Assembly: GCA_003221005.1 (NCBI GenBank)
Contig: QHTZ01000082.1
Span: 1-46,442, forward strand
Source: Gemmatimonadota bacterium
GTDB lineage: Bacteria; Gemmatimonadota; Gemmatimonadetes; Gemmatimonadales; GWC2-71-9
Length of the DNA stretch: 46,442 nt
Reading direction: 5' to 3'
A model generated the notes under the pieces. The model had not been told where the DNA came from, did no database searches, and saw only the letters and a list, made by a program, of their open reading frames with translations. The translations under genes were made by a program, and so were the position numbers. Below, in pieces: positions 18,621 to 44,337 of the stretch (position 1 is its first letter; each line of letters starts with the position of its first letter).

Positions 18621-18650
18621 AGGGGGCGGTAAGGGACGGTAGGGGGGAGG
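18621..18650 (+). repeat. Single-arm 10-nt tandem repeat (GGGGCGGTAA-like)
   Basis: GGGGCGGTAA GGGACGGTAG GGGG, the same unit as the element inside glcF. Confidence 0.5.
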
Positions 18651-18662
18651 AGCGTAGAGGTA

Positions 18663-19211
18663 GTGGCGCGGATCTACACGCGAACCGGCGACGCCGGCGA
18701 GACGGGGCTGTTCGGGGGGGAGCGCGTTCCCAAAGACGATCCCCGGGTCGCGGCCTACGGGGACGTGGATGAGCTCAACGCCGCCCTCGGCCTCGCGCTC
18801 GCGCTCGAACCGCAGGAGCAGTCGCGCGACCTGCTCGAGCGGGTCCAGCGGGACCTGTTCACGGTGGGTGCCGAGCTCGCGACCCCCGATCGGGCGCGCC
18901 TCGCGAAGGCCCTACCCGGCGAGCCGATCGGAGACCCGGAGATCGCGGCGCTCGAGCGCGCGATCGACGCGCACGAGGCGCAGCTCACCGCCCTCAGCAA
19001 CTTCATCCTCCCCGGCGGAACGCCGAAGGCGGCGGCGCTGCACCTGGCCCGCACGGTGTGCCGCCGCGCCGAACGCGCCGTGGTCCCGCTGGCGCGAGAC
19101 GGCGCCGCGCCGCCAGCCGTGGTGCGTTACCTGAACCGCCTCTCGGACCTGCTGTTCCTGCTCGCCCGCGCGGCGAACGCGGCGGCCGGCCGCTCCGACG
19201 TCAGGTGGTGA
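18663..19211 (+). CDS. pduO: ATP:cob(I)alamin adenosyltransferase, PduO type
   Basis: RIYTRTGDAGET, AYGDVDELN, FILPGG, RTVCRRAER and YLNRLSDLLF. GTG start at or next to 18663. Confidence 0.93.
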   Translation: MARIYTRTGDAGETGLFGGERVPKDDPRVAAYGDVDELNAALGLALALEPQEQSRDLLERVQRDLFTVGAELATPDRARLAKALPGEPIGDPEIAALERAIDAHEAQLTALSNFILPGGTPKAAALHLARTVCRRAERAVVPLARDGAAPPAVVRYLNRLSDLLFLLARAANAAAGRSDVRW

Positions 19212-20314
19212 CGATCCGCGTCCCGCTGCGCGAAGACCGCGACGCGTCGTACGACATCGTGATCGGCCGCGGCCTTCTGGCGGAGCTGCCGCGATTCCTG
19301 CGGGCGGCCGCTCCCGCGGTCGCGTACGCGGTGGTCAGCGATTCGCACGTAGCGGAGCTCTACGGCGCGCCCCTGGTCGCCCGGCTGGTGGAGGGTGGGT
19401 TGCCCGCGCGTCTGTTCGTCTTTCCGGCCGGGGAGTGGAACAAATCGCGGGAGACCTGGGCGACGCTGTCGGACCAGATGCTCGGCGCACAGCTCGGACG
19501 CGATTGCGCTGTGGTCGCGCTCGGCGGCGGCGTCGTCGGCGACGTCGCCGGGTTCGTCGCCGCCACGTATCTCCGCGGTGTCCCCTACGTGCAGGTGCCC
19601 ACTACGCTGCTCGCCATGATCGATTCGTCGATCGGCGGGAAAACCGGCGTGGACGTGCCGAGCGGCAAGAACCTCCTGGGCGCCTTCCACCAGCCGCGCC
19701 TCGTGGTCGCCGACCTCGAGGTCCTCGGCTCGCTCCCGCCCGTACAGCTCGCCGCCGGAATGGCGGAGGCGGTGAAGCACGGCGTCATCGCCGACGCCGA
19801 CTATTTCGGTTTTCTCGAGACGGCGCACGCCGCCGTGCTCGCACGCGACCCGGGCGCGCTCGAGCGCGCTGTCACCCGCTCGGTCGAGATCAAAGCCGAG
19901 GTGGTCGCGGCCGACGAGCGTGAAGCGGGGCGCCGCGCCATCCTCAACTTCGGCCACACGGTCGGTCACGCCATCGAGGCGACGTCCCGATTCGACGTGC
20001 TGCACGGCGAGGCCGTGGCGATCGGGATGGCGTGCGAGGCACGCCTGGCGGAAGCGCTCACCATCGCGGCGCCGGGCACGGCGCAGCGCGTCCGCCGGCT
20101 GCTCGAGCGGTGCGGGCTGCCGCTGGAGCGTCCCGCGGGTGCCTCGGTGGACGAGCTGCTCCGCGTCATGCAAGTCGACAAGAAGGCGCGCTCGGGGACA
20201 GTGCGGTTCTCGCTGCCGCGGGCCATTGGCGTGATGCATGGCGACGCGGGCGCAGGGTGGACAGTGACCGCGCCGGAGCAGCTGGTGCGGGAAACCCTCG
20301 CGGCCGCCGACTAA
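19208..20314 (+). CDS. aroB: 3-dehydroquinate synthase
   Basis: LGGGVVGDVAGF, VPTTLLAMIDSSIGGKTG, KNLLGAFHQP, LNFGHTVGHAIE and HGEAVAIGM. GTG overlaps the pduO stop. Confidence 0.96.
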   Translation: MTIRVPLREDRDASYDIVIGRGLLAELPRFLRAAAPAVAYAVVSDSHVAELYGAPLVARLVEGGLPARLFVFPAGEWNKSRETWATLSDQMLGAQLGRDCAVVALGGGVVGDVAGFVAATYLRGVPYVQVPTTLLAMIDSSIGGKTGVDVPSGKNLLGAFHQPRLVVADLEVLGSLPPVQLAAGMAEAVKHGVIADADYFGFLETAHAAVLARDPGALERAVTRSVEIKAEVVAADEREAGRRAILNFGHTVGHAIEATSRFDVLHGEAVAIGMACEARLAEALTIAAPGTAQRVRRLLERCGLPLERPAGASVDELLRVMQVDKKARSGTVRFSLPRAIGVMHGDAGAGWTVTAPEQLVRETLAAAD

Positions 20315-20333
20315 TCACATGCCGTCCAACAAC

Positions 20334-20463
20334 TTCCCCACACGGTTCCCACGTCTCCACAGCCGCGCGGTCCCGATCCTTGCGACAAAGTTGTCCACAG
20401 TGTCTGTGGATAGTGGAAAAACGATGGAATCACACCTGCGAGAACACTTTGTGATGTTGATAA
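20334..20463. promoter_or_regulatory. Cluster of DnaA-box-like 9-mers (candidate oriC or DnaA-regulated promoter)
   Basis: TTCCCCACA 20334, GTCTCCACA 20353, TTGTCCACA 20391, and on the reverse strand CTATCCACA 20405-20413, TTTTCCACT 20412-20420, TTATCAACA 20455-20463. Each has 1-2 mismatches to TTATCCACA. Confidence 0.65.
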
Positions 20464-20473
20464 GTGTGCAGAT

Positions 20474-20502
20474 TTGCACCATTTACAAGTGGTTCCTATA
20501 TT
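20474..20502 (+). promoter_or_regulatory. Putative sigma70 promoter of the sigma factor gene
   Basis: TTGCAC-17 nt-TATATT. Confidence 0.65.
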
Positions 20503-21488: not shown

Positions 21489-21600
21489 AGACGGGTAGAC
21501 GGGTAGACGGGTAGCGGTTGCTAGGACGAAGTGGTCAGGAGAGCCTTCTCCTGACCACTTTTTGCTGCTCACTCCTACCCGTCTACCCGTCTATCCGTCT
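21489..21600. repeat. Inverted pair of 8-nt tandem repeats enclosing a terminator
   Basis: (AGACGGGT)3 at 21489-21512 and ACCCGTCT ACCCGTCT ATCCGTCT at 21577-21600. Confidence 0.9.
21529..21563 (+). terminator. Intrinsic terminator of the sigma factor gene
   Basis: Perfect 14-bp stem AAGTGGTCAGGAGA/TCTCCTGACCACTT with a GCCT loop, ending in a T-run. Confidence 0.8.
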
Positions 21601-21612
21601 ATACTATTTTCT

Positions 21613-22302
21613 ATGGCTCGCGAGTTGCCGATGTTTCCGCTGCCGATCGTCCTGTTCCCTGGCACTCCCCAGCCGCTTCATATCTTCGAGCCGCGCTACC
21701 GCCAACTGGTCGCCGATTGCCTCGCCGGCGACCGCCGCTTCGGCGTCGCCTACGTCGCCCCCAGGGACGAGCACGCGGGGGAGCCGGCGCCCAACGCCGG
21801 GGATGTCGGCTGCGTCGCGGTCATCCGGACGGCGCACGAGCTGCCCGATGGGCGCTCGAACATCCTCACGGAGGGCGAGCGCCGGTTCGTGCTGCTCGAC
21901 TGGTGCGCGAGCGAGCGCCTGTACCGGCGCGCGCGAGTGGAGGAGTTCGACGACGATCCCATCGACCCCGCTGCAGCGGGCACGCTGGCGGCGGACGTCC
22001 GGGCGGAGTGCGAGCGCTTGACCGCCGCCCTGAACACGCTGACCAGCCGCGACTTCGAGGAGCCGGCCGCGCTGCCTGCCGATCCGACCGCGCTCTCGTT
22101 TCGCGTGGCCGGTGCGCTCGAGCTCGAGCCCGAGGCGAAGCGGGCGTTGCAGGCCGGGCGGAGCACTACGGCGCGCCTGCGCCAGCTAGCGGCACTGCTC
22201 AAGCCGCTCGCGGAGGACGCCACGCGCCGCGCCGTCGTGCGGGAGCGCGCGAAGCGGAACGGCCGCGGCGGCGCCCACTCGGAGATCGAGCGCGCCTCGT
22301 GA
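21613..22302 (+). CDS. Stand-alone LON peptidase substrate-binding domain protein
   Basis: LPMFPLPIVLFPG, PLHIFEPRYRQLV and LPDGRSNI. Confidence 0.9.
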   Translation: MARELPMFPLPIVLFPGTPQPLHIFEPRYRQLVADCLAGDRRFGVAYVAPRDEHAGEPAPNAGDVGCVAVIRTAHELPDGRSNILTEGERRFVLLDWCASERLYRRARVEEFDDDPIDPAAAGTLAADVRAECERLTAALNTLTSRDFEEPAALPADPTALSFRVAGALELEPEAKRALQAGRSTTARLRQLAALLKPLAEDATRRAVVRERAKRNGRGGAHSEIERAS

Positions 22303-23822
22303 TCGACCACGCGCTGGTGGAGGCCCTGACGCAGATCGTCGGCGAGCGGCACGTGCGCACCGCCGGCGCGGAGCGCGCCACCTACGCGAAGGACGGTCTG
22401 ACCGTACACCGACGCCTCCCCGCGGTCGTGGTCCTCCCCGGCAGCCGGGACGAGGTGATCGCTGTCGTGCGTCTACTCGCCGTACACGGGGTGCCGTTCG
22501 TGCCCAGGGGCGCGGGCACCGGGCTCTCGGGCGGGGCGCTCGCCGACCAGGATGCCGTGCTCCTCGTGCTGACCCGGCTCAACCGCATCCTCAAGGTCGA
22601 TCCGCGGAACCGCGTCGCCACGGTCGAGCCGGGCGTCGTCAACGTCAAGCTCTCGGTGGCGGCCGCCCCGCATGGCCTGCTGTACGCTCCCGATCCATCG
22701 AGCCAGAGCGCCTGCACCATCGGCGGCAACGTGGCGGAAAACGCGGGTGGTCCCCATTGCCTCAAGTACGGCGTCACCGCGACCCACGTGCTCGCGCTCG
22801 AGGTCGTGCTGGCGGACGGGCAGGTGATACAGCTCGGGAGCCCCGGCGGCGAGGCCTGGGGGCCCGACCTCGTCGGCCTGTTCGTCGGATCCGAGGGCAA
22901 CTTCGGGGTCGCCACGCGGATCACCGTCCGCCTGCTCCCTGTGCCGCGCGCCGTGCGGACGCTGCTCGCCGACTTCCCGGCGCTGCGGACGGCGGGCGAG
23001 GCCGTCTCCGCGGTGATCGCGAGCGGCATCGTGCCCGCCGCGCTCGAAATGATGGATCACTCCTGCATCCAGGCCGTGGAAGATTCGGTGTACGCGGCGG
23101 GGTACCCGCGCGACGCCGCTGCCGTGCTGCTCGTCGAGCTCGACGGACGCGTCGACGATTCCGTCGCCGCGGACGCGGCCAGCGTCGAAGCCATTCTCAA
23201 GGACCACGGGGCGCGCTCGGTGCGGACCGCGGTGGACGCGCGCGAGCGGGAGCGGCTGTGGCAGGGCCGCAAGAAAGCGTTTGGCGCGATGGGTCGCCTG
23301 TCGCGCGACCTCGTCGTCCAAGACGCGGTGGTGCCGCGGTCGTCGCTCCCCGACGTGCTCGAGGCGATCGGTCGGATCGGCGAGCGCTACGGCCTGACCG
23401 TGAGTAACGTGTTCCACGCCGGGGACGGAAACCTGCACCCCAACATCTCGTTCGACGGCCGCATCCCCGGCCTGCGGGCGCGGGTGGATGCTGCGAGCGG
23501 TGAGATGATGGCCGCGTGCATCGTGGCGGGGGGCACCATCACCGGGGAGCACGGCATTGGGCTCGACAAGCTGCGCTACATGCCCCTCATCTTCGACGGC
23601 GACTCGCTCACCGCGATGCGCGGCGTGCGACGCGTCTTCGATCCCGCGGAGCGGGTCAACCCGGGGAAGGTGGTGCCCGTGCACGCGTGCCGGGAGTGGG
23701 CGGGAGTGCGGAATGCGGAGTTCCAAGCGCGGAACGCGGAAGTGGGAACGCGGAGCGCGTCGCGAGGAGACGGCGTGAGCAGTTCCGCGCTCCGCGTTCC
23801 GAGTTCCGCGGTGGGATCATGA
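22299..23822 (+). CDS. glcD: Glycolate oxidase FAD subunit GlcD-like, with repeat-derived C-terminal tail
   Basis: PRGAGTGLSGG, PDPSSQ, IGGNVAENAGGPHCLKYG, GSEG, HAGDGNLHP, GEHGIG and NPGK. Confidence 0.9.
   Translation: MIDHALVEALTQIVGERHVRTAGAERATYAKDGLTVHRRLPAVVVLPGSRDEVIAVVRLLAVHGVPFVPRGAGTGLSGGALADQDAVLLVLTRLNRILKVDPRNRVATVEPGVVNVKLSVAAAPHGLLYAPDPSSQSACTIGGNVAENAGGPHCLKYGVTATHVLALEVVLADGQVIQLGSPGGEAWGPDLVGLFVGSEGNFGVATRITVRLLPVPRAVRTLLADFPALRTAGEAVSAVIASGIVPAALEMMDHSCIQAVEDSVYAAGYPRDAAAVLLVELDGRVDDSVAADAASVEAILKDHGARSVRTAVDARERERLWQGRKKAFGAMGRLSRDLVVQDAVVPRSSLPDVLEAIGRIGERYGLTVSNVFHAGDGNLHPNISFDGRIPGLRARVDAASGEMMAACIVAGGTITGEHGIGLDKLRYMPLIFDGDSLTAMRGVRRVFDPAERVNPGKVVPVHACREWAGVRNAEFQARNAEVGTRSASRGDGVSSSALRVPSSAVGS
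23702..23810. repeat. Inverted 7-nt tandem repeats (GCGGAAC/GTTCCGC family) inside the glcD 3' end
   Basis: GCGGAAT GCGGAGT ... GCGGAAC GCGGAAGT GGGAAC GCGGAGC, then GTTCCGC GCTCCGC GTTCCGA GTTCCGC. Confidence 0.85.
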
Positions 23823-25042
23823 AGATCGTCGAACGGGTGAAGGCGCTGCTAGGCCGCGACGCCGTGCTCGAGGATACGGGGGCGCCGGACGGCCTGCCGC
23901 GCGTGGCCCCTGCCTCGCCGGACGCGGTGGCGCTGCTGCTCGGCACCGCGCGCGAAGAAGGCTGGCGCGTCCGCGTCGAAGGCGCGGGCACGTGGATGCC
24001 TGCCGACGCCGCCGCCGACCTGGCGCTCACCACCCGGCGCCTCGACCGCGTCCCGTCGATCCAGCCGCAGGACCTCGCCGCCACTGCCGAAGCCGGCATC
24101 GGGTGCGACCAGCTGCGCCAGCAGCTCGCCGACCGCGGCGCCTGGCTCGCGCTCGATCCTCCCGGACTCGCCGGCCGCACGCTCGGATCGGTCGTGGCCA
24201 CGGCGACCGCCGGACCGCTGCGCCACGGGTTCGGCGCGGTGCGCGACCATCTCGTCGGCGTCACGTTCGTGACCGGCGATGGCCGCCTCGTTCAGAGCGG
24301 CGGCCGGGTGATGAAAAACGTGGCGGGCTACGACCTCACCAAGCTGCAGGCGGGCGGCTTCGGCGCATTCGGCGTCATCGTGCTCGTGCACCTGCGCCTG
24401 CGCGCGCTTCCGCGGGTGGATCAGACGCTCGTCCTCGAGGGATCGCGCGAGGACCTGTCGCGGGTGGCCGACGACATCACGGCCGCCGGCCTCACCCTGG
24501 CGGCGCTGGAGTTGTTTTCACCAGCCCTCGCCCGCCGCGATCGCTGGGTCCTCGCGGTGCGTCTCGCGGGCTCCGCCGCCCTCGTCGGGGCCGAGGAAGC
24601 CGGGTTGCGGTCGGCGACCGGGGGCCAGTTCTCGGCGCTGCGTGCCGACGAGGCGCACGCGTTCTGGATGCGAGCGGCGGAGGCGTTCGCCACGCGACCG
24701 GTCACCTTCCGCGTCGGCGGGCTCCCCGACTCGAGCGATGACCTGCTCGACCTCATCCAGCATCAGGTAGGTGACGAGTGGGTATCGGCGAGCCCCGGCG
24801 CCGGCACCCTGCGCTGGACGGGCGAGACGACCGTCGACCGGCTGCGGCGGCTGCGTCGCACGCTCGCCGCTCAGGAGGTCCCCCTCACGGTGGAACGCGC
24901 CGCCTGGCCGCTGCGCCGCGCCGTGGGCCACTTCGGCGCCTACCGCGAAGGCGTGGGCCCCCTCGTCGCGGGGTTGCGGCACACCTTCGATCCCGGAAAC
25001 GCGATCGCGGTCGCGGTCGAAAGCGAGGACCGTGCCGGTTGA
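23819..25042 (+). CDS. glcE: Glycolate oxidase subunit GlcE-like
   Basis: GGRVMKNVAGYDLTKL signature. Lies between glcD and glcF. Confidence 0.88.
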   Translation: MKIVERVKALLGRDAVLEDTGAPDGLPRVAPASPDAVALLLGTAREEGWRVRVEGAGTWMPADAAADLALTTRRLDRVPSIQPQDLAATAEAGIGCDQLRQQLADRGAWLALDPPGLAGRTLGSVVATATAGPLRHGFGAVRDHLVGVTFVTGDGRLVQSGGRVMKNVAGYDLTKLQAGGFGAFGVIVLVHLRLRALPRVDQTLVLEGSREDLSRVADDITAAGLTLAALELFSPALARRDRWVLAVRLAGSAALVGAEEAGLRSATGGQFSALRADEAHAFWMRAAEAFATRPVTFRVGGLPDSSDDLLDLIQHQVGDEWVSASPGAGTLRWTGETTVDRLRRLRRTLAAQEVPLTVERAAWPLRRAVGHFGAYREGVGPLVAGLRHTFDPGNAIAVAVESEDRAG

Positions 25043-26324
25043 CGCCGTCGCGGAGGCGCGCGGCGGATTCGCAGCGCTCGACTCCTGCGTCCATTGCGGC
25101 TTCTGTCTCCAGGCGTGCCCCACGTTCCTCGCAACGGGCGACGAGGCCGACAGCCCGCGCGGCCGCATCGAGCTCATGCGTGCCCTCGAGCGCGGGGAGC
25201 TCACGGCCGACGACCCCTACGTGGTCGAGCACCTCGATCGCTGCCTCGGCTGTCGCGGCTGCGAGCCGGTGTGCCCCTCGGGCGTGGGCTACGGCCACGG
25301 CCTCGAAGCGGCGCGGGAGCTGATCGCGGCCGCGCGGCCCCTCCCCTGGCTCGCACGCGCGGCGCTCGCCGCCTTGACCACGCCCGGGCTCTCGGGGTTG
25401 GTGTACGCGCTCGCCCGTGCGCTGCGCGTCACGGGGATCCCGGGCTGGCTGGCGGGATGGGGGCGGGTGGGGTTTGCGATGGGAATGCTGGCGAGTACGG
25501 CGCCGACGGGCGGTAAGCGGCGGAATGGGGCGGTACGGGGCGGTAGGAGTCACGCCGCGCCGACCGCCTCTGACCGCCCGTTACCGCCCCTTACCGCCCT
25601 GCTGTTCCGCGGCTGCATCATGGACGGCCTCTTCTCCCATGTGCACGATGCCACGGTCCGCGCCCTCACGGTGAATGGCTACGAGGTCACGGATGTCCCC
25701 GGGCAGGTGTGCTGCGGGGCATTACACGTGCACGCGGGGCTGCGAGACGCCGCCCGGGCGTTGGCGCGCCGCAACCTCAGCGCGTTCGGTGAGGGGGACG
25801 AGCCGATCGTCGTCAACAGCGCCGGCTGCGGAGCGCTGCTGAAACAGTATGGAGACCTGCTCGACCTTACCCCCGCAGCGAGCGCTGGGGCAAGGTTCGC
25901 CGCCCGCGTCCGCGATGTCACAGAGCTCCTGGCCGCGCGCGGCCCAGTGCCGGGCGCACCGCTGGACACGCGGGTGGCGTACGATCCCCCCTGCCACCTG
26001 CTTCACGCCCAGCGCATCGCGGAGCCACCGCTCCAGATGTTCCGCGCCATTCCGGTGCTCCAGCTGGTCGCGACGCCGGACGCCGCGCAGTGTTGTGGCA
26101 GCGCCGGGTTGTTCACGCTGGTGCAGCCCGGCATGTCCCGCGCGGTGCTGGCGCCCAAGGTCGCGTCGCTGCGCGAGGCGGCCCCGCAGGTGGTCGCGAC
26201 CGGCAACCCCGGCTGCCTGATGCAGCTCGGTGCGGGACTGCGGGCGGCGCGCATCCCTGCGCGCACGCGACATCCGGTCGAGCTGCTCGACGACTCGTAT
26301 CGGGCGGCAGGCTACTATGCCTGA
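25032..26324 (+). CDS. glcF: Glycolate oxidase iron-sulfur subunit GlcF-like
   Basis: CVHCGFCLQACP, SPRGRI, CLGCRGCEPVCPSGV and two CCG domains. Confidence 0.9.
   Translation: MPVDAVAEARGGFAALDSCVHCGFCLQACPTFLATGDEADSPRGRIELMRALERGELTADDPYVVEHLDRCLGCRGCEPVCPSGVGYGHGLEAARELIAAARPLPWLARAALAALTTPGLSGLVYALARALRVTGIPGWLAGWGRVGFAMGMLASTAPTGGKRRNGAVRGGRSHAAPTASDRPLPPLTALLFRGCIMDGLFSHVHDATVRALTVNGYEVTDVPGQVCCGALHVHAGLRDAARALARRNLSAFGEGDEPIVVNSAGCGALLKQYGDLLDLTPAASAGARFAARVRDVTELLAARGPVPGAPLDTRVAYDPPCHLLHAQRIAEPPLQMFRAIPVLQLVATPDAAQCCGSAGLFTLVQPGMSRAVLAPKVASLREAAPQVVATGNPGCLMQLGAGLRAARIPARTRHPVELLDDSYRAAGYYA
25508..25599. repeat. Inverted 10-nt tandem repeats in frame within glcF
   Basis: Four GGGGCGGTA-like units followed by four TTACCGCCCC-like units, period 10. 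Confidence 0.85.
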
Positions 26325-27342
26325 CGGCCTCAAGCGCCTCGATCCGCAGGAGGTGACCCCGGTCCTCTTCACGGCGCTCCAGACGGGAGCCGTAATCGGG
26401 CCGGCGGACGTGGGCGTGCTGGCCGTATCGGGTCCCGGCGCGGTGCAGTGTATCCAGGGGCTCCTCACGAACGACATCGAGAAGCCGGGCGACGATGCGT
26501 TCGTCTACGGCGCGCTGCTCACGCCGAAGGGCATGATCGTGGTGGACGGGTGGGCGGCGCGGCAGGGAACGACGGTGACTTTTACCGTTCCGGCGGAGGC
26601 GAGGGAGCGCGCGCTGGCCATCTTCATGCGCGCGCTGCCGCCGCGGCTCGCGCAGCCCCGCGACCAGTCGCCTGAGGTCGCGGTATTCCGGCTTGCGGGG
26701 CCGCAGGCGCTGGTGGTCGCGCAAACCGCGGGACTCGTCCTACCGTCGGCACCGGGACGCGTCACGCGCCCCGCGGCAGGCGCGCCGGCGTGGGCGGTGG
26801 CGCGCGCCAGCGAGCAGGCGCCGTTCACGCTCCAGATCACCGCGCCCGCGTCGGAGGCCGCCCGCGTGACCGAGCGCCTCACCGCGGCAGGCGCACTCGC
26901 CGCCGGCGCCGCGGCGCTCGAATGCGCTCGCATCCTGGCGGGATGGCCGCGGCTCGGCGCCGAAGTGGACGACAAGACGATCCCGCAGGAGGTGCGCTTC
27001 GACGAGCTGAACGGCGTGTCCTATACGAAGGGCTGCTACACGGGGCAGGAAACGGTGTCGCGGCTGCACTTTCGCGGCCACGTGAATCGCTACCTGCGCG
27101 GTCTGCTGTTCGATGCCGAGCCCGCGGACGGCAGTACCGGCGTCGTCCACCTGGATCGCGAGGCGGGTCGCGTGACGAGCGTGATGTGGGCGCCCGAGCC
27201 CCGGATCGCGGGCGGCGGGCGGTGGGTCGGGCTCGCGATCCTCCGCCGGGAGGTCGGGCCCGGCGCCATCGTACGCGCTGGCGGGCGCGACGCGCGCGTC
27301 GTCGAGCTGCCATTCGCGACGCCGTTCATTGCTCCCGCCTGA
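26317..27342 (+). CDS. ygfZ: YgfZ/GcvT-like folate-binding Fe-S maturation protein
   Basis: QGLLTND, LTPKG and the signature KGCYTGQE. Confidence 0.88.
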   Translation: MPDGLKRLDPQEVTPVLFTALQTGAVIGPADVGVLAVSGPGAVQCIQGLLTNDIEKPGDDAFVYGALLTPKGMIVVDGWAARQGTTVTFTVPAEARERALAIFMRALPPRLAQPRDQSPEVAVFRLAGPQALVVAQTAGLVLPSAPGRVTRPAAGAPAWAVARASEQAPFTLQITAPASEAARVTERLTAAGALAAGAAALECARILAGWPRLGAEVDDKTIPQEVRFDELNGVSYTKGCYTGQETVSRLHFRGHVNRYLRGLLFDAEPADGSTGVVHLDREAGRVTSVMWAPEPRIAGGGRWVGLAILRREVGPGAIVRAGGRDARVVELPFATPFIAPA

Positions 27343-27346
27343 GGGG

Positions 27347-27381
27347 AAACGAAAAGCCCGGGGCAGCTGGCGGTCCCGGGC
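27347..27381 (-). terminator. Putative intrinsic terminator for the small lipoprotein gene (convergent with ygfZ)
   Basis: GCCCGGGGC/GTCCCGGGC stem followed on the minus strand by TTTTCGTTT. Confidence 0.6.
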
Positions 27382-27408
27382 ATCGTCTGCGCCACAAACG
27401 GCGCGCGC

Positions 27409-27603: not shown

Positions 27604-27658
27604 GCGGACGACCTCACGATAAGAGAATGCTCGTTGCAGCGGGGTGTGCGCGCGGCAT

Positions 27659-27686
27659 AAGCTAGCGGTGACCCCTTCGGAGTCAA
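27659..27686 (-). promoter_or_regulatory. Putative sigma70 promoter of the lipoprotein gene
   Basis: Minus strand TTGACT-16 nt-TAGCTT. Confidence 0.5.
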
Positions 27687-32324: not shown

Positions 32325-32363
32325 GGCAGTATCTTCTCCCACCGTCCCCCCTTCGGAGTCCCC

Positions 32364-37156: not shown

Positions 37157-40100
37157 GTGAGCGAGTTCGTCTTCGGTACCCACAATGCGGCGTTCGTGCA
37201 GGTGATGTACGAGCAGTACCTGCGCGATCCGCAGTCGGTCGGGGAAGAGTGGCGTAACCTCTTTGACAACGGTCGGGTCGCCGACCTGCCGGTAATCCCG
37301 ACGAGCCGGGAAGAAGTGCTGCGGGACGAGGGACGAGGGACGAGGGACGGGTCGGTCGTCACCGAGCCCGGGACCACCCGTCCCCCGTCCCCCGTCCCAC
37401 CTCCCCAGGGCCTCACGCCGATAACCGGCCCCGCAGCTCGCCTCGCCCAAAACATGACGGACTCTCTGTCCGTCCCCACGGCGACGTCGTTCCGCGACAT
37501 CGCCGCAGACGTGCTCGACGCGCAGCGGCGGCTGCTGAACGGCGCCCTGGCTGCCCGCGGGCTCAAGATCTCCTACACGCACCTCATCGGCTACGCCCTC
37601 GTACAGGCGGCGCGCGGCTTCCCGGTGATGACCCACGCCTTCCAGGAAGTCGAGGGCAAGCCGCACCGCTTCGATCCGCAGGCGGTGCATCTCGGTCTCG
37701 CCGTGGACGTCGAGAAGAAGGACGGCAGCCGCGCGCTCGTCGTCCCCGTGATCAAGCACGCCGAAGGGATGGATTTCGCGCAATTCCGCGCGGCCTACGA
37801 GACCCTGGTCGAGAAGGCTCGCGCCAACAAGCTGCTCCCCGACGACTTCGCCGGCGCGACCATCACGCTCACCAACCCCGGCACCCTCGGCACTTTCGCG
37901 TCGGTGCCGCGCCTCATGAAGGGTCAGGGCTCGATCATCGCGACCGGTACGATCCGCCAGATCGGCCCCGCGAAGGTCATGACGCTCACGAGCACCTACG
38001 ACCACCGCATCATCCAGGGCGCGGAGTCGGGGATGTTCCTGCGCAGAGTCGAGGGGCTGCTGCAAGGGGAGGACGAGTTCTACGGCTCGATTCTGGAGAG
38101 CCTAGGGTTGCAGGGACGTGGGACGCGGGACGTGGGACGGGTGGCGACGGTAACAGCTCCACCGACCCCGTCCCCCGTCCCCCGTCCCTCGTCCCTCGAC
38201 GATCTCAAGCACGTAGCAGCAGCCATGGCGCTCGTGAAAGCGATCCGCCATTTCGGGCACATGGCGGCGCGGCTCGACCCGCTCGGCTCCGCGCCCCCCG
38301 GCGACCCGGCGCTCGATCCCGGTCCGCTCGGCCTGACGCCCGAAATCATGGCGCGGATCCCGGCGGAGATCCTGCGCATCTACGTGCCGGGGGTCACCCT
38401 CGCCGACGCGTATCCGGAGCTGTTGCGCACCTACTGCGGCACGATCTCTTACGAGGTCGAGCACATCGGCAGCCACCAGGAGCGCCTCTGGTTGCGCCAC
38501 GTGATCGAGTCGGGGGAGCACCGCACGCCGCTCACGCCGGACGAGCGGCGCGAGTTGCTTGCGCGGCTGACGGCGGTGGAAACGCTCGAGCGCTTCCTGC
38601 ACCGTACCTATCTCGGGCAGAAGCGTTTTTCGATCGAGGGACTCGACATCCTCGTGCCGATGCTCGACCTCACGATCGAGCTCGCGGGCGCGGGCGGCGC
38701 CCGTCGCGTCGTGCTCGGCATGGCGCACCGCGGGCGCCTCAACGTGCTCGCCCACGTGGTAGGGCTCCCCTACGAGACGATCTTCGCCGAGTTCGAGGGA
38801 GGTAGGCACGTGGAAGAGACCCTCACCCCCGAGGGCGGCACCGGCGACGTGAAGTACCACCACGGCGCGGACGGAGTGTACCAGACGGCCGATGGCAAGC
38901 CGGTCAACGTCACCCTGTCGCCGAACCCGAGCCATCTGGAGGCGGTGAATCCGGTGGTCGAGGGCCGGGCCCGCGCCAACCAGACGAACCGCCGCGGCAA
39001 GGAGGCGTTCTCCGATGCCTCAGTCGCCCTCCCCGTGCTGATCCACGGCGACGCCTCGTTCGCGGCACAGGGCGTCGTGGCGGAGACGTTCAACCTCGCG
39101 CGGCTCAAGGGCTACACTACGGGCGGTACGATCCATCTCATCGCGAACAATCAGCTCGGCTTCACGACCGACGCCAAGCAGGCGCGCTCGACCGACTACG
39201 CGAGCGATCTCGCGAAGGGGTTCGACGTTCCCATCATCCATGTGAACGCGGACGATCCCGAGGCGTGCCTCGCGGCGGTGCGCCTGGCGCTCCGGTACCG
39301 GGCGGAGTTCAAGGGCGACGTGGTGATCGACGTCGTGGGGTACCGCCGCTACGGCCACAACGAGGGGGACGAGCCGGCGTACACGCAGCCGCTCATGTAC
39401 GAGAGGATCAAGGAGACGCCGACCGTGCGGCAGCGCTACGCCGAGCAGCTCGTCGCCGCCGGCGTGGTGGACGCGGCGCAGGTCGAGGCAGAGCCCCAGC
39501 AGTTCTACCAGCGGCTGAGCGAGATCCAGCAGTCCCTCAAGGCCCATCTCTCCGAGGACACGAAGGGCGAAGAGCCGCAGCGCATCTCGGGTGTGCAGCA
39601 GCTGGTCTCGGAGCCGGACACGCGGACGGCGCCGCAGCTCCTCACCAGCCTGAACCAGCAGCTGCTCGCGGTGCCCGACGGATTCACCGTGAACCCCAAG
39701 CTCCAGAGGCAGCTCGAGCGCCGGCGTGAGGCATTGACGCAGGGCGAGATCGACTGGGCGCACGCCGAGGCGCTGGCGTTCGCGTCGCTGTTGCAGGAGG
39801 GGATCTCGATCCGCCTCACCGGACAGGACACCGAGCGCGGCACCTTCAGCCAGCGCCACCTCGTGCTGCACGACATCCGCACCGGTCAGGGCTACGCGCC
39901 GATGCAGAACCTCGCCGGCGCGCGCGCGCCGTTCGAGCTGTACAACAGTCCGCTGTCCGAGTTCGCATGCCTCGGCTTCGAGTACGGGTACGCGGTGGCG
40001 GCGCCCGACGCGCTAGTGTTGTGGGAGGCGCAGTACGGCGATTTCACCAACGAAGCCGAAGTGATCATCGACCAGTTCCTCATCGCCGGGCTCGCGAAAT

Positions 40101-40780
40101 GGGGCCAGACCTCGCGGCTGGTGCTGCTCCTGCCCCACGGGTACGAGGGCCAGGGACCCGAGCACTCGAGCGCCCGCATCGAGCGGTTCCTCGCCTTGGG
40201 CGCCGACGGGAACATCCGGATCGCCAACTGCTCCACGCCGGCGCAATACTTCCATCTGCTGCGCCGCCAGGCGCGCCACACCGAGATCCGGCCGCTCGTG
40301 CTGTTCACGCCCAAGAGCCTGCTGCGGCTGCCGCAGGCGGCGTCCAAGCTCGAGGAGCTGACGGCGGGCGCGTTCCATGCTGTGCTGGACGACGCCGCGG
40401 CGGCGGAGCGGCGTGACGCCGTGCGCCGCCTCGTGCTGTGCAGCGGCAAGGTGTACTACGATCTCCTGCTGGCGCCGGCGCGTGCCAGCGCGACCACCGT
40501 GGCGGTCGGCCGCGTCGAGCTGATGTATCCCTTCCCCGAGGCGGAGCTCGCCGAGCTGGTGCGGCGGTACCCCAACCTCACAGAGATCGTGTGGGTGCAG
40601 GAGGAGCCGCGCAACATGGGTCCGCAGAAGTTCATGTTGCCGCAGCTGCGCGAGCTCGTCCCCGCGAGCATCGAGCTACGCCACATCGCGCGGCCCGAGC
40701 GCTCGAGCCCGGCCGAGGGGTACCCCGCAGCGCACCAGGCCGAGCAGGCGCGGATCGTGGCGGAGGCGTTCGCGACCTGA
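37157..40780 (+). CDS. sucA: Multifunctional 2-oxoglutarate dehydrogenase/decarboxylase (Kgd/OdhA-type E2o-like + E1o fusion)
   Basis: Acyltransferase-like domain (TLTNPG, YDHRIIQGAESG) followed by KRFSIEG, GMAHRGRLN, GDVKYH, HGDASFAAQG, GHNEGDEP and LPHGYEGQGPEHSSAR. Confidence 0.95.
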   Translation: MSEFVFGTHNAAFVQVMYEQYLRDPQSVGEEWRNLFDNGRVADLPVIPTSREEVLRDEGRGTRDGSVVTEPGTTRPPSPVPPPQGLTPITGPAARLAQNMTDSLSVPTATSFRDIAADVLDAQRRLLNGALAARGLKISYTHLIGYALVQAARGFPVMTHAFQEVEGKPHRFDPQAVHLGLAVDVEKKDGSRALVVPVIKHAEGMDFAQFRAAYETLVEKARANKLLPDDFAGATITLTNPGTLGTFASVPRLMKGQGSIIATGTIRQIGPAKVMTLTSTYDHRIIQGAESGMFLRRVEGLLQGEDEFYGSILESLGLQGRGTRDVGRVATVTAPPTPSPVPRPSSLDDLKHVAAAMALVKAIRHFGHMAARLDPLGSAPPGDPALDPGPLGLTPEIMARIPAEILRIYVPGVTLADAYPELLRTYCGTISYEVEHIGSHQERLWLRHVIESGEHRTPLTPDERRELLARLTAVETLERFLHRTYLGQKRFSIEGLDILVPMLDLTIELAGAGGARRVVLGMAHRGRLNVLAHVVGLPYETIFAEFEGGRHVEETLTPEGGTGDVKYHHGADGVYQTADGKPVNVTLSPNPSHLEAVNPVVEGRARANQTNRRGKEAFSDASVALPVLIHGDASFAAQGVVAETFNLARLKGYTTGGTIHLIANNQLGFTTDAKQARSTDYASDLAKGFDVPIIHVNADDPEACLAAVRLALRYRAEFKGDVVIDVVGYRRYGHNEGDEPAYTQPLMYERIKETPTVRQRYAEQLVAAGVVDAAQVEAEPQQFYQRLSEIQQSLKAHLSEDTKGEEPQRISGVQQLVSEPDTRTAPQLLTSLNQQLLAVPDGFTVNPKLQRQLERRREALTQGEIDWAHAEALAFASLLQEGISIRLTGQDTERGTFSQRHLVLHDIRTGQGYAPMQNLAGARAPFELYNSPLSEFACLGFEYGYAVAAPDALVLWEAQYGDFTNEAEVIIDQFLIAGLAKWGQTSRLVLLLPHGYEGQGPEHSSARIERFLALGADGNIRIANCSTPAQYFHLLRRQARHTEIRPLVLFTPKSLLRLPQAASKLEELTAGAFHAVLDDAAAAERRDAVRRLVLCSGKVYYDLLLAPARASATTVAVGRVELMYPFPEAELAELVRRYPNLTEIVWVQEEPRNMGPQKFMLPQLRELVPASIELRHIARPERSSPAEGYPAAHQAEQARIVAEAFAT
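37323..37398. repeat. Inverted 7-nt tandem repeats in frame in sucA linker 1
   Basis: (GGGACGA)3GGGACGG ... (CCGTCCC)3. Confidence 0.9.
38113..38195. repeat. Inverted 7-nt tandem repeats in frame in sucA linker 2
   Basis: GGGACGT GGGACGC GGGACGT GGGACGG ... (CCGTCCC)3 TCGTCCC. Confidence 0.9.
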
Positions 40781-41345: not shown

Positions 41346-41615
41346 ATGGCGACGATCTCGCTCCACGTCGTCCCCCGCGCCCGCGCCACGGCAGTGGCGG
41401 GGAAGCACGGTGACGCGGTGCGAATCCGGATCGCGGCGCCACCGGTGAACGGCGCGGCGAACGCCGAGCTGGTGCGCTACCTGGCGGCGCGGCTGGGCGT
41501 CGCAACCGGCCGGATCACGATCGTGGCCGGAGCCGGCGGGCGCCGCAAGACCGTGGCGGTGGAAGGCATGGAACGGGAGCGCATCGAGCGAGCGCTGCTC
41601 GAGGACGCGCCGTGA
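41346..41615 (+). CDS. yggU: DUF167/YggU family protein
   Basis: HVVPRA, IAAPPVNGAANAELVRYLA and GAGGRRK. Confidence 0.9.
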   Translation: MATISLHVVPRARATAVAGKHGDAVRIRIAAPPVNGAANAELVRYLAARLGVATGRITIVAGAGGRRKTVAVEGMERERIERALLEDAP

Positions 41616-41764
41616 GACTTCTCAAGACGCTCGTCAACCTCGTCGTCGCGACCCTCGTCGGTGCGCTCGGCGACAAGCTGTTCGGCGCATGGGGCATGGT
41701 GCTCGGCTTCATCGCGGGCGGCCTCGCCGCCTGGTGGGTGGCGCGGCGAATGTTCGACAGCTAG
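41612..41764 (+). CDS. 50-aa small two-helix membrane protein (not in ORF track)
   Basis: GTG overlaps the yggU stop and has a GAGGA SD. Translation: MRLLKTLVNLVVATLVGALGDKLFGAWGMVLGFIAGGLAAWWVARRMFDS. Confidence 0.75.
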   Translation: MRLLKTLVNLVVATLVGALGDKLFGAWGMVLGFIAGGLAAWWVARRMFDS

Positions 41765-41836
41765 ACGTCAGACATCAGACGTCAGACGTCAGAGGCGGGC
41801 CTGCTGATGTCTGAAGTCTGATGTCTGACGTCCGAT
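41762..41836. repeat. Inverted 7-nt tandem repeats (TCAGACG family) overlapping the cydB 3' end
   Basis: TAGACGTCAGACATCAGACGTCAGACGTCAG ... CTGATGTCTGAAGTCTGATGTCTGACGTCCGATGT. Confidence 0.9.
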
Positions 41837-42837
41837 GTTCTCTTGAACACTCGAAACAACAAATACAGCGACGGGAACAGCACGATCGCGCCGAGCACCA
41901 GTGCGCCGAGGGCGAGGCGCAGCGTGGCGTCGGGGGCGGCGACGTCGGCGATCGCGAGGTCGGGTGGGAGGATGTCGGGGTACTGGCTGAGCGGCCACCC
42001 CCAGAAGATCAGCGTCACCTGGCCCGCGGCGGCGATGCGGGCGATGCGATAGTGCCGCCGCGATAACGCGCCGAGCGCCGTGACCGCGGCGACGCCGGTG
42101 AGGAGATGCAGCGGCAGGGCCCAGGGCGCAAAGACCAGGTCATCCAGGAGGCTGGGAGCGCCGCCGCGCGCGAGGAGCAGCACTGCGACGGCCGCGAAGA
42201 ACAGCGCCACTCCGGCGCCGAGCGCCCGGCGGCGGAAGTCCTCCCGCAGCGGCTGGTCCTCCGTTTCGAGCGTCAGATAGACGGCCGCGAGAAACGCGAA
42301 CGCCACGAGCGCAAACACCCCGACCGAGAGCGCAAACGGCGCGAGCCACGGCGCGACGTAGATGGAGTAGAACCCGTCCCCCGTCCCTCGTCCCCCGTCC
42401 CCGATCGCGCCCGACGCGATCGCTCCTACGGCGGTCCCGAGCAGCAGCGGCGTGATGAGGCTCGCGCTCGCGAACAGTCGCCCCCACCGGCGCTGCACCG
42501 CGTCGCGCTGCCCGCCGTAGCTACGAAACGCGAACGCGGAACCGCGCAGCACGATCCCGATCAGCACCAGCGAGAACGGGATGTGCAGCCGGATACCGAG
42601 CTCGGCGAATGCCGCCGGAAAGCAGGTGAACAGCAGGACGATCGCGAGGATGAGCCAGACGTGGTTCGCCTCCCACACGGGACCGATCGCGTGCGCGACG
42701 AGCTCGCGTTGCTGTGTCTTACGCGGACCGCTCGCGAGCAGGTCCCAAACGCCGCCGCCGAAATCTGCGCCCGCGAGCAATACGTAGGCGTTTAGCGCTA
42801 CGACGATGATGCCGGCGAGCAGGTCGGCGAGCGTCAC
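41782..42837 (-). CDS. cydB: Cytochrome bd oxidase subunit II
   Basis: GADFGGG, IGPVWEANHVWL and LRGSAFAFR. GTG overlaps the cydA stop. Confidence 0.92.
   Translation of the reverse strand: MTLADLLAGIIVVALNAYVLLAGADFGGGVWDLLASGPRKTQQRELVAHAIGPVWEANHVWLILAIVLLFTCFPAAFAELGIRLHIPFSLVLIGIVLRGSAFAFRSYGGQRDAVQRRWGRLFASASLITPLLLGTAVGAIASGAIGDGGRGTGDGFYSIYVAPWLAPFALSVGVFALVAFAFLAAVYLTLETEDQPLREDFRRRALGAGVALFFAAVAVLLLARGGAPSLLDDLVFAPWALPLHLLTGVAAVTALGALSRRHYRIARIAAAGQVTLIFWGWPLSQYPDILPPDLAIADVAAPDATLRLALGALVLGAIVLFPSLYLLFRVFKRTSDVRHQTSDISRPASDV
42374..42401 (-). repeat. Single-arm 7-nt tandem repeat in frame in a cydB loop
   Basis: Four GGGACGR units on the minus strand, encoding GDGGRGTGDG. Confidence 0.8.
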
Positions 42838-44135
42838 CCGTCCCCCGCGTGCGTCACGAACGTCCACACCTCCTCCGGCACCTTCGGACTGCGCACGATG
42901 TGACGATAGAGGAGCCACGCCACGATCACGCCGAGAAAACAGTACAGCAGCGTGAATACGACGAGCGGCACCATGAGCCCGGGCATCGGCGTCACCGCAT
43001 CCCGCGTCCGCAGTACGCCATAGATCGCCCACGGCTGGCGCCCCAGCTCCGTCGCGATCCACCCGGCCTCGGTCGCGATGAACCCCATGGGTGTAGCGAG
43101 CGCGACCGCGCGCATGAGCCACCGATGCTCGGCCAGGGCTTCACGTCTCTCGTTTCCCGTTTCCCGCTTCCCGGTCTTGATCGCAACCCATCCTGCCCAA
43201 AGCGCCACGCCCGCCATGTAGCTCCCCAGTGCGACCATCAACTGAAACGACCAGTGCACCGCGGGGACGTTCGGCCAGTCCTCGCGCGGCACGGCGTCCA
43301 GTCCCTTCACGACGGCGTTCGGGTCGTGGAAGGCGAGCAGCGAGAGGCCGTAGGGGATCCGGATCGCGTAGCGCGTCACCCGCGCCTCTACGTCGGGCCA
43401 GCCGCCGAGCACGAGTGGCGCGCCGGCCTCGGTGTGGAACACCGCCTCCATCGCGGCGAGCTTGGCGGGCTGATTGCGCGCCACCTGGCGGGCCGCGAAA
43501 TCGCCCGCGAGCGGCTGCAGCACGGCGGCCGGCCCGCCCACGAGCAGCGCGATCGTCAGGGCGCGGCGGTGGAAGGCGTTGGTCGGATCTTTCAGCAGCA
43601 GGAATGCGTGGATGCCGGCGACGGCGAACCCCGTGGCCGCATACGCCGCGAGCGTCATATGAATCGTCTGTGACAGCGCCGCGGGGTTCAGCATGGCGGC
43701 GATGGGGTCCACCTGCACCACCGCGCCGCGTACCAGCGTGAACCCCGCCGGGGTGTTCATCCACGCATTCGCGATCACGACGAAGATCCCCGACGCCGCC
43801 CCGCTCACCGCCACGAGCAGCCCGGCCGCGAGGTGGGCGCGGGGGCGGATGCGCTCCCAGCCGTACAGGTAAATGCCGAGGAAGATCGCCCCGGGCCACA
43901 AGAGCCCCAGCTCGAACGACAGCACCGTCCCGGACACCGCACCCACGGCGAACAGGATCGCCGTTCCCTTGGCCCAGCGCTGTGCCAGCTCGAGGTAGAT
44001 CTCGTCTCGCGTGATGAGCCAGCGCCGCTCCGCCACGACCATGAGCAGCGGCATCCCGATCCCGACGAGCGCGAAGATGATGTGGAACGCGAGGGAGATT
44101 CCCATCTGCGAGCGAGCGGCGAGGAGGTCGGACAT
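42834..44135 (-). CDS. cydA: Cytochrome bd oxidase subunit I, short Q-loop, with an apparent in-frame internal deletion
   Basis: AFHIIF, ANAWMNTP, QPAKLAAME, FQLM and EAGWIATELGRQPW. The segment between LLWPG and AIFLG is missing. Confidence 0.9.
   Translation of the reverse strand: MSDLLAARSQMGISLAFHIIFALVGIGMPLLMVVAERRWLITRDEIYLELAQRWAKGTAILFAVGAVSGTVLSFELGLLWPGAIFLGIYLYGWERIRPRAHLAAGLLVAVSGAASGIFVVIANAWMNTPAGFTLVRGAVVQVDPIAAMLNPAALSQTIHMTLAAYAATGFAVAGIHAFLLLKDPTNAFHRRALTIALLVGGPAAVLQPLAGDFAARQVARNQPAKLAAMEAVFHTEAGAPLVLGGWPDVEARVTRYAIRIPYGLSLLAFHDPNAVVKGLDAVPREDWPNVPAVHWSFQLMVALGSYMAGVALWAGWVAIKTGKRETGNERREALAEHRWLMRAVALATPMGFIATEAGWIATELGRQPWAIYGVLRTRDAVTPMPGLMVPLVVFTLLYCFLGVIVAWLLYRHIVRSPKVPEEVWTFVTHAGDG
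43144..43173 (-). repeat. Single-arm 7-nt tandem repeat in frame in a cydA loop
   Basis: Minus strand GGGAAGC GGGAAAC GGGAAAC GAGAGAC, encoding GKRETGNERR. Confidence 0.75.
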
Positions 44136-44212
44136 GGGCTACAACATAAAGGCGTGGTGCGCGCCTTTCAGTCCTTGCATCGGATCGCTAAGTTATAGAC
44201 CGACATCGGTTC

Positions 44213-44264
44213 TCCGTGGCGATTTGCGGCGTATTGCGGCCACGTAAAACAATCCGCTAAAAGG
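44213..44264 (+). ncRNA. SAM-II (SAM_alpha) riboswitch aptamer
   Basis: P1 CGTGGC(44215-20)/GCCACG(44239-44), GATTTG, ATTG/CAAT pairing and 3' GCTAAA(44256-61). Lies upstream of a methionine synthesis gene. Confidence 0.88.
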
Positions 44265-44268
44265 CCGG

Positions 44269-44307
44269 CCCGTTGCGGCTTTCTGCGCTGTGACGGGATT
44301 TCGTTTT
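44269..44307 (+). terminator. Putative terminator / expression platform of the riboswitch
   Basis: CCCGTTGCGGC/GCTGTGACGGG 11-bp stem with three G-U pairs, then ATTTCGTTTT. Confidence 0.6.
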
Positions 44308-44309
44308 GT

Positions 44310-44337
44310 GGGAAACGGGAAAGGGGAAACGGGAAAG
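44310..44337 (+). repeat. Single-arm 7-nt tandem repeat abutting the yitJ start codon
   Basis: GGGAAAC GGGAAAG GGGAAAC GGGAAAG, then GTG. Confidence 0.85.

Follow-up and report, generated by a model that had tools for sequence, protein, structure and literature searches.

Short tandem-unit arrays at gene ends and inside reading frames of a Gemmatimonadota genome: members of a known repeat class with signs of concerted turnover

In a contig of a Gemmatimonadota bacterium (GenBank assembly GCA_003221005.1, contig QHTZ01000082.1), short arrays of tandem units, many of them facing a complementary array across a spacer, lie at gene ends and, in frame, inside genes for core enzymes. The question which this locus raises is what writes such arrays and what keeps them regular. 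The window, by which we mean the complete stretch of 46,442 nucleotides that was analysed, corresponds to contig C120 in an assembly of 141 contigs, 2.79 Mb in size and 69% in G+C; the genome is labelled G000 in the following. A first-pass annotation had proposed one generative mechanism for all elements and an undescribed system. Our analysis shows that the feature is real and abundant, and that it belongs to a described but poorly understood class of bacterial repeats; it is neither a transposon nor an undescribed system, and a role as a regulator is not demonstrated. We favour, with an even chance of being right, the explanation that the arrays are kept regular by copying from array to array, which depends on a genome-level factor, and that selection filters the sites at which they survive.

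Elements were located by applying Tandem Repeats Finder (TRF) to the window and by direct reading of the letters. In this way 12 elements were found, all at the places where about 12 had been claimed, and the division into eight two-armed and four one-armed elements was confirmed. A two-armed element in the window consists of a purine-rich array, a spacer of 5-60 nt and a complementary array; all eight fold into hairpins, with z-scores from -3.6 to -15.6 against mononucleotide shuffles. The number of 12 elements in 46 kb compares with 4.3 expected (p = 0.0016). Their absence from the first 18 kb, which had been remarked upon, holds apart from a weak 8-mer row (12762-12787) that has no periodicity in the congener G005 and was taken as chance, but it is not significant (Poisson p = 0.18). 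According to Pfam, the host genes encode a sigma-70 factor, GlcD, GlcE, GlcF, CydA, CydB, a MetH-like protein, and a SucA of the Kgd type with a fused E2-like domain. Seven elements are translated (one each in glcD, glcF and cydA, two each in sucA and cydB), as had been claimed and as Pfam and the frames confirm: translated elements with Pfam domains to either side occur in glcF, cydA, sucA/kgd (two elements) and cydB, and the C-terminal tails of glcD and cydB arise by reading through an element. New protein segments are thus indeed created.

The attempt to explain the elements as assembly artefacts failed, because independent soil-metagenome contigs span them (X2 at 37321-37720, X4 at 32164-32681). 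The contigs from four soil runs are short and end at arrays. Contig joints between arms of different elements (37352 to 38166; 23754 to 33952), whose sides measure just 19-28 letters, were rejected as evidence for deletions, since they most likely stem from other loci of the same unit family.

For the whole genome, TRF arrays with at least three copies and a score of at least 38 were counted, and three genomes shuffled by triplets within 600-nt blocks served as controls. The genome (2.8 Mb) contains 433 arrays, among these 181 of period 7, 92 of period 8 and 37 of period 10; the shuffled genomes contain 26-30 arrays in total and, for the same periods, 1-2, 2-3 and 3. The scan for tandem 7-, 8- and 10-mers which the first-pass annotation had suggested therefore yielded 310 arrays as compared with about 6 in the controls. 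At least 15 unit families with three period lengths recur in this one genome; these include the heptamers GGGGGAC (33 arrays), GCGGAAT (25), GGGGGAA (17), GGGAAAC (16) and GCGGGAT (15) as well as CGGACGGT (17) and GGGGCGGTAA (10). The mode is four copies at every period: 117 of 181 7-mer arrays, 71 of 92 8-mer arrays and 25 of 37 10-mer arrays. Strict GGGRNNN runs have three units in 64 cases, four in 80 and five in 3, and this sharp stop at four units is unlike the smooth tail expected of slippage. GGG phasing is present in 111 of the 181 heptamer arrays and gives the logo GGGANRN, in which positions 5 and 7 vary within and between arrays; a tally of the 407 units in 102 GGG-phased arrays gave A at position 4 in 85% and G or A at position 6 in 93%. 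The six units that had been called unrelated are all present, but two of them, GGGACGN and GGGAAAC, are members of one GGGANRN network.

An inspection of the pairs showed that the purine-rich arm is the 5' one in all 63 adjacent inverted pairs, and the same order was found for 21 of 24 weak partners beside apparently single arrays. About three quarters of the elements (194 of 257) are one-armed. The median arm identity is 0.89, not one of the 63 pairs is perfect, and the order of unit variants is not mirrored between the arms (0.867 observed, 0.867 permuted, p = 0.82). Fold-back copying, which predicts mirror-image arms, was rejected for this reason. Hence, of the postulated single mechanism, the shared architecture stands and one genome-level process is probable, whereas the fold-back route is unsupported. 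A BLAST comparison of spacers among the 63 two-armed elements gave no matches, only the short units recur; four spacers have a second match in the genome. Each pair encloses its own unique spacer, and consequently the arrays are not transposons. Growth by doubling was not apparent, as ABAB unit patterns are not enriched (3 observed, 3.2 expected); ABCA patterns seem to be in excess, probably because TRF trims the array ends.

Part of the evidence for our explanation comes from sites which can be followed through related genomes. Two of them are two-armed GGGACGN elements in linkers of sucA/kgd, identified by TRF, reading and Pfam: the first (37323-37406) lies in frame between the N-terminal motif and the E2-like domain (approximately residues 56-84), the second (38113-38195) in frame between the E2-like and the E1 domain (approximately residues 319-347). 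The third is a one-armed array, GGGACGG in 4.3 copies (42373-42402, minus strand; TRF and reading), which is G-rich on the cydB mRNA and encodes the peptide GDGGRGTGDG in a loop of CydB. At all three sites the unit is GGGACGN in G000 and GGGAAGC in the congener G005, and these are the dominant GGG families of the respective genomes. In G016, GGGATTS is found both genome-wide and at the second sucA site. Thus, the unit at a site follows the dominant family of the genome, which means that arrays at different loci change in concert.

For the sucA comparison, the N-terminal part was taken from the 35 of 91 loci which cover it; locus L005 (G003) was left out, as its longest frame proved to be a gene other than sucA. 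Approximately 18 of the 21 closest orthologues have facing heptamer arrays in linker 2, in at least nine spellings as judged by eye, and none of the 14 more distant orthologues has arrays there; these possess ordinary Pro/Ala-rich linkers instead. Linker 1 behaves like linker 2, with facing heptamer arrays made of other units in the relatives. In the cydB loop, a 31-nt array with identical boundaries and genome-specific units is present in six of seven genomes of the genus; the remaining one, G004, has none. As the Gly-rich loop of distant genera is only three residues (9 nt) shorter, the array overwrote the loop and was not cleanly inserted.

Three further observations concern sucA. In linker 1, the metagenome contigs L163 and L164 have near-identical GGGATGC-type arms around spacers of equal length (19-20 nt) but unrelated sequence. 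Judged by these sequences, it looks as if the loop was replaced while the arms stayed, as at the glcD site, where G005 has the same unit family as G000 around an unrelated spacer. The sucA of family f1 (37157-40780 in the window; loci L020-L030) is of the Kgd/OdhA type with an N-terminally fused E2-like acyltransferase domain. In families f2 and f3 the matches begin near residue 335, so that the fused domain is missing.

The distribution of arrays among genomes is of the all-or-none type. Four phased GGGA units match 87 times in G000 (reversed control: 2), 245 times in G017, 181 times in G023 and 73 times in G005; there is no match in G004, which belongs to the same genus and is 100% complete, nor in G007, G011, G012, G021, G027 and G029. 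Family f3 uses the reversed pattern type, with 134 matches in G020. In a 144-kb sample of G004, about 16 arrays of period 7, 8 or 10 would have been expected, and none was present; the array densities in samples of G017 and G020 were 440 and 240 per Mb. The sucA and cydB sites of G004 carry decayed-looking or ordinary sequence. Array-rich genomes have all unit families side by side, whereas G004 lacks every one of them, and this is why we infer a factor that acts at the level of the genome.

Taken as a process, non-reciprocal copying between arrays would maintain their regularity. Likely routes would be a switch of template or gene conversion over short tracts, at DNA that is prone to form structures while it is replicated or repaired, and some genome-level factor would be needed. 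Selection, in turn, would only decide which arrays stay, namely those directly past a stop codon, those in the gap between convergent genes, and those read in frame in a linker, loop or tail. The sites themselves are, to judge from the orthologous loci, inherited vertically across the genus or family. A dedicated cellular function is not needed to explain the data, and the tests that were run gave it no support, although they leave room for one.

The remaining elements of the window illustrate both kinds of location. Inside reading frames, the two-armed GCGGAAC heptamer element at 23728-23810 (TRF, reading, Pfam) constitutes the translated C-terminal tail of glcD, where the FAD-oxidase_C domain ends at residue 652 of a 701-codon frame. 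The glcD stop overlaps the glcE start as ATGA (23819-23822) directly past the translated repeat, which places the repeat inside a translationally coupled junction. In glcF, a two-armed 10-mer element, GGGGCGGTAA with 3.8 copies per arm (25508-25599; TRF, reading, Pfam), is read in frame between the Fer4 and CCG domains; G005 has kept a two-armed 10-mer at this site with a different unit, GACGGAAAGA. The one-armed array in cydA (43140-43173, minus strand; TRF, reading, Pfam), GGGAAAC/GGGAAGC in 4.9 copies, is in frame and G-rich on the mRNA. At the same site in G005 (C7:117744-117816) there are at least 10 units GGGAAGC/GGGAGGC, a rare case far beyond four units, yet in frame.

Past the sigma-70 gene rpoD lies a two-armed 8-mer element (21489-21601; TRF, reading, folding) with AGACGGGT in 3.2 copies and its complement in 3.4 copies. 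It begins 5 nt past the stop codon, has a minimum free energy of -87.3 (z = -15.6), surrounds a terminator-like hairpin with a T5 run, and extends with its 3' arm into a TATACT box that precedes the next ATG. With a terminator-like hairpin inside its spacer, this element is exceptional. Across 81 orthologous loci the inner hairpin is conserved, whereas the outer AGACGNNN octamer arms vary from none to about 10 units, and the copy numbers of both arms correlate (r = 0.73). Built into the outer units are stop codons and a -10-like box; loci without an array, too, have TAGACG after the stop. In most relatives (L031-L110), a TATACT or TATAGT box is located about 7 nt ahead of the ATG of the gene after rpoD (21596-21615 in the window), a sequence arrangement which suggests a leaderless transcript.

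Three two-armed elements are built directly on stop codons, so that the claim that several elements start exactly there holds. The first is a TCAGACG heptamer hairpin (32269-32322, arrays 32271-32322; TRF and reading, z = -8.8), whose altered first unit is the TGA stop (32269-32271) of the open reading frame (ORF) 30790-32271. Contigs of three independent soil runs have an ATG insertion (3 nt) at position 32298 in the loop of this hairpin, and a fourth run has a 1-nt insertion at 32295. An ORF of 986 amino acids at 27820-30780 matches no Pfam family above threshold; there is one faint match, to Glyco_hydro_38N. The second, a GCGGAAC element at 33917-33978 (arrays 33920-33975; reading and Pfam), exactly spans the gap between the stops of a cytidylate-kinase-like gene (plus strand) and a convergent MFS transporter gene (minus strand): the stop codons at both ends (33917-33919, 33976-33978) are each the first unit of an arm. 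The third, a CAGACGT element between convergent genes (41762-41838; TRF and reading, z = -11.6), provides with its first unit the TAG stop (41762-41764) of a 50-residue ORF on the plus strand; cydB on the minus strand traverses one arm and the loop and stops within the other arm (41782-41784). The cydB genes of relatives end earlier and do not have the tail from this element. The 50-residue ORF itself (41612-41764) is hydrophobic and conserved, converges on cydB, has a C-terminal coding sequence recognisable in relatives, and would escape the usual length cut-offs.

Two one-armed arrays complete the set. A degenerate array of three units of about 10 nt, belonging to the GGGGCGGTAA family (18622-18652, plus strand), is located in the divergent spacer ahead of a cobalamin adenosyltransferase gene; it was missed by TRF and found by direct reading. 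At the 5' end of the MetH-like gene, GGGAAAC/GGGAAAG is present in 3.9 copies (44310-44336, plus strand; TRF, reading, Pfam). In the frame from 44290, Pfam domains begin at residue 31; as the start codon is uncertain, this array lies in either the leader or the N-terminus. Synteny with one contig of G005 extends over the whole window, and gene context is shared with relatives at the sucA, cydB, cydA, glcD, glcF and rpoD sites, with variation in length and sequence. The comparison of orthologues, which had been proposed as a means of finding empty sites and target duplications, produced the former but not the latter: four sites are empty in G005 (18622, 32271, 33920, 44310), the site at 32271 having a length of 30 nt there and 74 nt here, the one at 33920 34 nt and 81 nt, and no target duplication was seen when the filled and empty 32271 sites were compared.

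The same preferences are visible genome-wide. By a crude test based on the G+C content of third codon positions (GC3), 48 of 257 elements are in frame inside ORFs and 209 outside; the in-frame arrays, about a fifth, sit in linkers, loops or protein tails and encode peptides rich in Gly, Arg and Asp, then in Pro and Ser. For 26 of 34 two-armed elements the start lies between -2 and +8 nt from a supported stop, and the stop codon often reads as the first unit with one letter changed. One-armed arrays which abut a stop are G-rich on the sense strand (21 as opposed to 7), and those 13-60 nt past a stop are C-rich (21 as opposed to 3; Fisher p = 6e-6 for the contrast), which indicates that single arrays follow the layout of half a pair. 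The G-rich strand of each array runs 5' to 3' away from the nearest gene end; therefore the purine-rich arm comes first on either strand. Within ORFs, one-armed arrays have the G-rich strand on the mRNA in 24 cases and on the other strand in 10, so that what had been stated as a rule for the one-armed copies of the window is only a tendency in the genome.

Several points weigh against the explanation by copying between arrays. No copying event has been directly observed: the best strain-level relative of sucA in a metagenome scan has 85% protein identity, for which reason recent gain or loss of arrays is not datable, and contigs break at arrays. Copying alone leaves the sharp limit of four units unexplained, as well as the correlated copy numbers of the rpoD arms and the fixed orientation of the arrays. 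The limit and the correlation could reflect a structural or functional constraint, and the long persistence of sites could mean function and not tolerance. Arrays of 28-40 nt are at the lower length limit for homologous recombination, and the required genome-level factor remains hypothetical. In addition, array richness across genomes was scored mainly by four phased GGGA units as compared with the reversed pattern, related genomes are not independent observations, and the gene context was derived from the GC3-based ORF heuristic and not from a gene caller.

Some of these points would be accounted for if the elements had a function at the 3' ends of genes, either as two-way terminators or insulators or, like REP sequences (repetitive extragenic palindromes), as protectors of mRNA 3' ends, with selection on the stem keeping the arms matched. 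We regard this as unlikely. The elements abut stop codons, their hairpins are very stable, they exactly fill the convergent gaps at 33917-33978 and 41762-41838, both arms grow together at the rpoD site, where the element also surrounds a terminator-like hairpin with a T run, and sites persist across genera. However, canonical terminators are rare: at least four T in a row come after the 3' arm in just 3 of 63 elements (2 of 63 for the other strand), and T4 or A4 occurs inside 2 of 31 long spacers. Selection for pairing in the sense RNA should leave an excess of G-U pairs, but wobble mismatches number 21 in the sense and 21 in the antisense direction; RNA hairpins, which the first-pass annotation had regarded as a product of the system, are thus not visible as a selected feature. 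Moreover, 194 of the 257 elements are one-armed, 48 lie within ORFs, and one congener has lost all its arrays.

The preference for four units could also arise if four G-tracts were kept in order to form one intramolecular quadruplex in DNA or RNA. The GGG phasing of 111 of the 181 heptamer arrays, the conservation of positions 1-4 and 6 (GGGANRN, resembling GGGANTN in Xanthomonas; Rehm et al. 2015, PMC4692102), and the stop of strict runs at four units (80, with 3 at five) agree with this idea, and quadruplex formation in vitro is among the results which Rehm et al. report for their units. The canonical G3 motif is, however, present in just 87 of 310 arrays; 157 have GG tracts only, and 66, for example those of TCAGACG, have neither. 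Arrays without G3 tracts and the 8- and 10-mers likewise have a mode of four, and in a pair the facing C-rich arm would compete by forming a duplex. We therefore judge it decidedly unlikely that quadruplexes are the general reason for the arrays.

A similar assessment, at still lower probability, applies to binding sites for one or more global DNA- or RNA-binding proteins with which the units co-evolve, as Aklujkar et al. (2009, PMC2700814) proposed for the paired sites of Geobacter. A fixed number of units, a paired symmetry like that of operator pairs and genome-specific unit families would fit such sites. At least 15 recurrent families with three period lengths in one genome would not, nor would the location of arrays at gene 3' ends and in ORFs instead of promoters. 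CsrA, a candidate on account of its GGA binding, was found in 6 of 31 genomes, none of them in this genus, and did not correlate with arrays; we know of no candidate protein.

Purely local replication slippage, without exchange between loci and without a special factor, is very improbable indeed. It would explain why the outer units at the rpoD site incorporate stop codons and a -10-like box, why TAGACG is present at array-less loci, and why copy number among orthologues ranges from 1 to about 10 units. It does not explain that a few unit families recur at dozens of loci, that three loci were respelled together between G000 and G005, that the length distribution is not geometric, and that congeners differ in an all-or-none manner.

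Non-autonomous mobile elements, i.e. MITEs (miniature transposable elements with inverted repeats) or REP doublets forming hairpins (REPINs) moved by a REP-associated tyrosine transposase (RAYT) or another transposase, are largely refuted: the dispersed family with empty and filled orthologous sites, the palindromic shape and two Y1_Tnp genes in G000 are matched by such elements, but spacers are unique, no target duplication is seen at the site at 32271, the cydB array replaced loop sequence with a net gain of 9 nt, and a RAYT was found in the array-free G007, G012, G027 and G029 but in none of the array-rich G005, G023 and G020. MITEs were rejected on the first three of these grounds. Whole-element transposition is ruled against by the unique spacers and the lacking RAYT correlation, and REPIN/RAYT membership by the lack of whole-sequence copies among the 63 elements and of co-occurrence with RAYT.

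Which enzyme could provide the genome-level factor that copying between arrays would require? Candidates were compared with array counts across 31 genomes. RAYT (PF01797, Y1_Tnp) was detected in 13 genomes and showed no correlation with arrays. Reverse transcriptases, searched with the PF00078 RVT_1 model only, were detected in four genomes and not in G000, G005, G017 and G023; a telomerase- or retroelement-like templated addition of repeats was rejected on this basis. RAYT and reverse transcriptase, two of the trans-acting enzymes that had been suggested, thus found no support. Ku (24 genomes) and SbcD-like genes (all 31) did not track arrays, and PIF1 gave one weak match, in G004.

A lead is offered by a short RecQ-core helicase. 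Matches to the RecQ family above the curated cut-off are present in 29 of the 31 genomes, the exceptions being G004 and the incomplete G008. G000 encodes a truncated RecQ-core helicase (C119:8648-9886; locus L258:3649-4887) of 412 amino acids, which comprises the DEAD and Helicase_C domains and part of the RecQ zinc-binding domain, without RQC or HRDC. This gene adjoins an aminotransferase gene in G000 and in four array-bearing congeners. In G004, the sole array-free genome of the genus, the aminotransferase neighbour is present (C84, locus L263), and the helicase is missing from the locus. Full-length relatives of the short helicase coincide with array richness in 14 of 16 cases, as compared with 4 of 15 for the other genomes. 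Note that this association is confounded by shared ancestry, and that G024 as well as G013, G014 and G023 are counter-examples. It is a conjecture in which we place little confidence that a switchable activity at the level of the genome writes or maintains four-unit arrays at fixed sites and so keeps rewriting the ends of genes and core-enzyme linkers; if it is true, the loss of such an activity would account for the array-free G004 with its decayed sucA remnants.

Whatever their origin, the arrays shape gene boundaries: repeat units supply stop codons, and C-terminal tails are added to proteins. In essential enzymes (Kgd, cytochrome bd, GlcD, GlcF), linker peptides have been repeatedly replaced without killing the enzymes, which makes the arrays a constant supply of novel, disordered protein segments. 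In practice, short-read assemblies break at them, and gene callers are led astray where genes end. The limit of four units, the fixed orientation and the all-or-none pattern among congeners make the question of their origin testable.

Among the known systems, the heptamers of heterocystous cyanobacteria, termed short tandemly repeated repetitive (STRR) sequences, are dispersed tandem heptamers with several unit families per genome, and in these respects the arrays resemble them; most descriptions of STRR sequences concern one-armed arrays between genes, in genomes richer in AT. Rickettsia palindromic elements are likewise translated in frame in tolerant parts of proteins; they are, however, whole-sequence mobile copies of about 100-150 bp in ORFs and not arrays of tandem units. 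REP/REPIN sequences, whole-sequence copies moved by RAYT in the account of Bertels and Rainey (2011, PMC3116915), share with our elements that they are dispersed, lineage-specific, hairpin-forming, located after genes, vertically inherited and evolving within genomes. In contrast to them, only the short unit is shared here, spacers are unique and RAYT does not track arrays.

A full-text literature search found no paper on such repeats in Gemmatimonadota. Nevertheless, the architecture as such is not undescribed, contrary to what had been proposed: it is present both in the report of Aklujkar et al. (2009, PMC2700814) and in that of Rehm et al. (2015, PMC4692102). In Geobacter metallireducens, the former authors list four GGGACCG heptamers at 49 intergenic or intragenic places and paired sites on opposite strands at variable distance, which consist of four 8-mers, three 9-mers or five 7-mers; they see in these either regulatory elements of RNA or sites to which global regulators bind. 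Tandem heptamers plus further classes of paired sites with other unit lengths are thus common to both cases. Some Geobacter pairs are associated with insertion sequences at a fixed distance, which was not seen here, and the Geobacter account, in the parts that deal with these sites, gives no comparative turnover data of the kind obtained here.

The closest relatives are the arrays described by Rehm et al., (GGGANTN)n in Xanthomonas campestris and X. axonopodis and GGGGA(C/T)T in Nostoc PCC 7120. For Xanthomonas these authors report 183-186 arrays per genome with a mode of four units and 70-75 convergent pairs; 89-93% of the arrays are intergenic, about 28 nt from the upstream ORF, their function is unknown, and two species share the gene context of 83% of them. 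Our arrays agree with this class in heptamers with conserved positions 1-4 and 6 (111 of 181 heptamer arrays), in the preference for four units, in facing pairs that are always convergent, in the mostly intergenic location near the end of the upstream ORF with an intragenic minority, and in a gene context shared between species with variation in length and sequence. They differ in their many unit families, among which are 8-mers, 10-mers and units that lack G tracts, in that about a fifth are read in frame in ORFs of core enzymes, where in Xanthomonas 7-11% partly overlap ORFs, and in the concerted turnover of units between congeners, one of which is array-free. Concerted turnover and stop codons within the first unit are not mentioned in what Rehm et al. 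state about Xanthomonas. What is added here to the class is that genomes of one genus differ in an all-or-none manner, that the enzyme tests were negative, that arms are unmirrored, that single arrays follow a stop-codon rule and that the limit of four units holds across unit lengths; the same architecture is now seen in four phyla.

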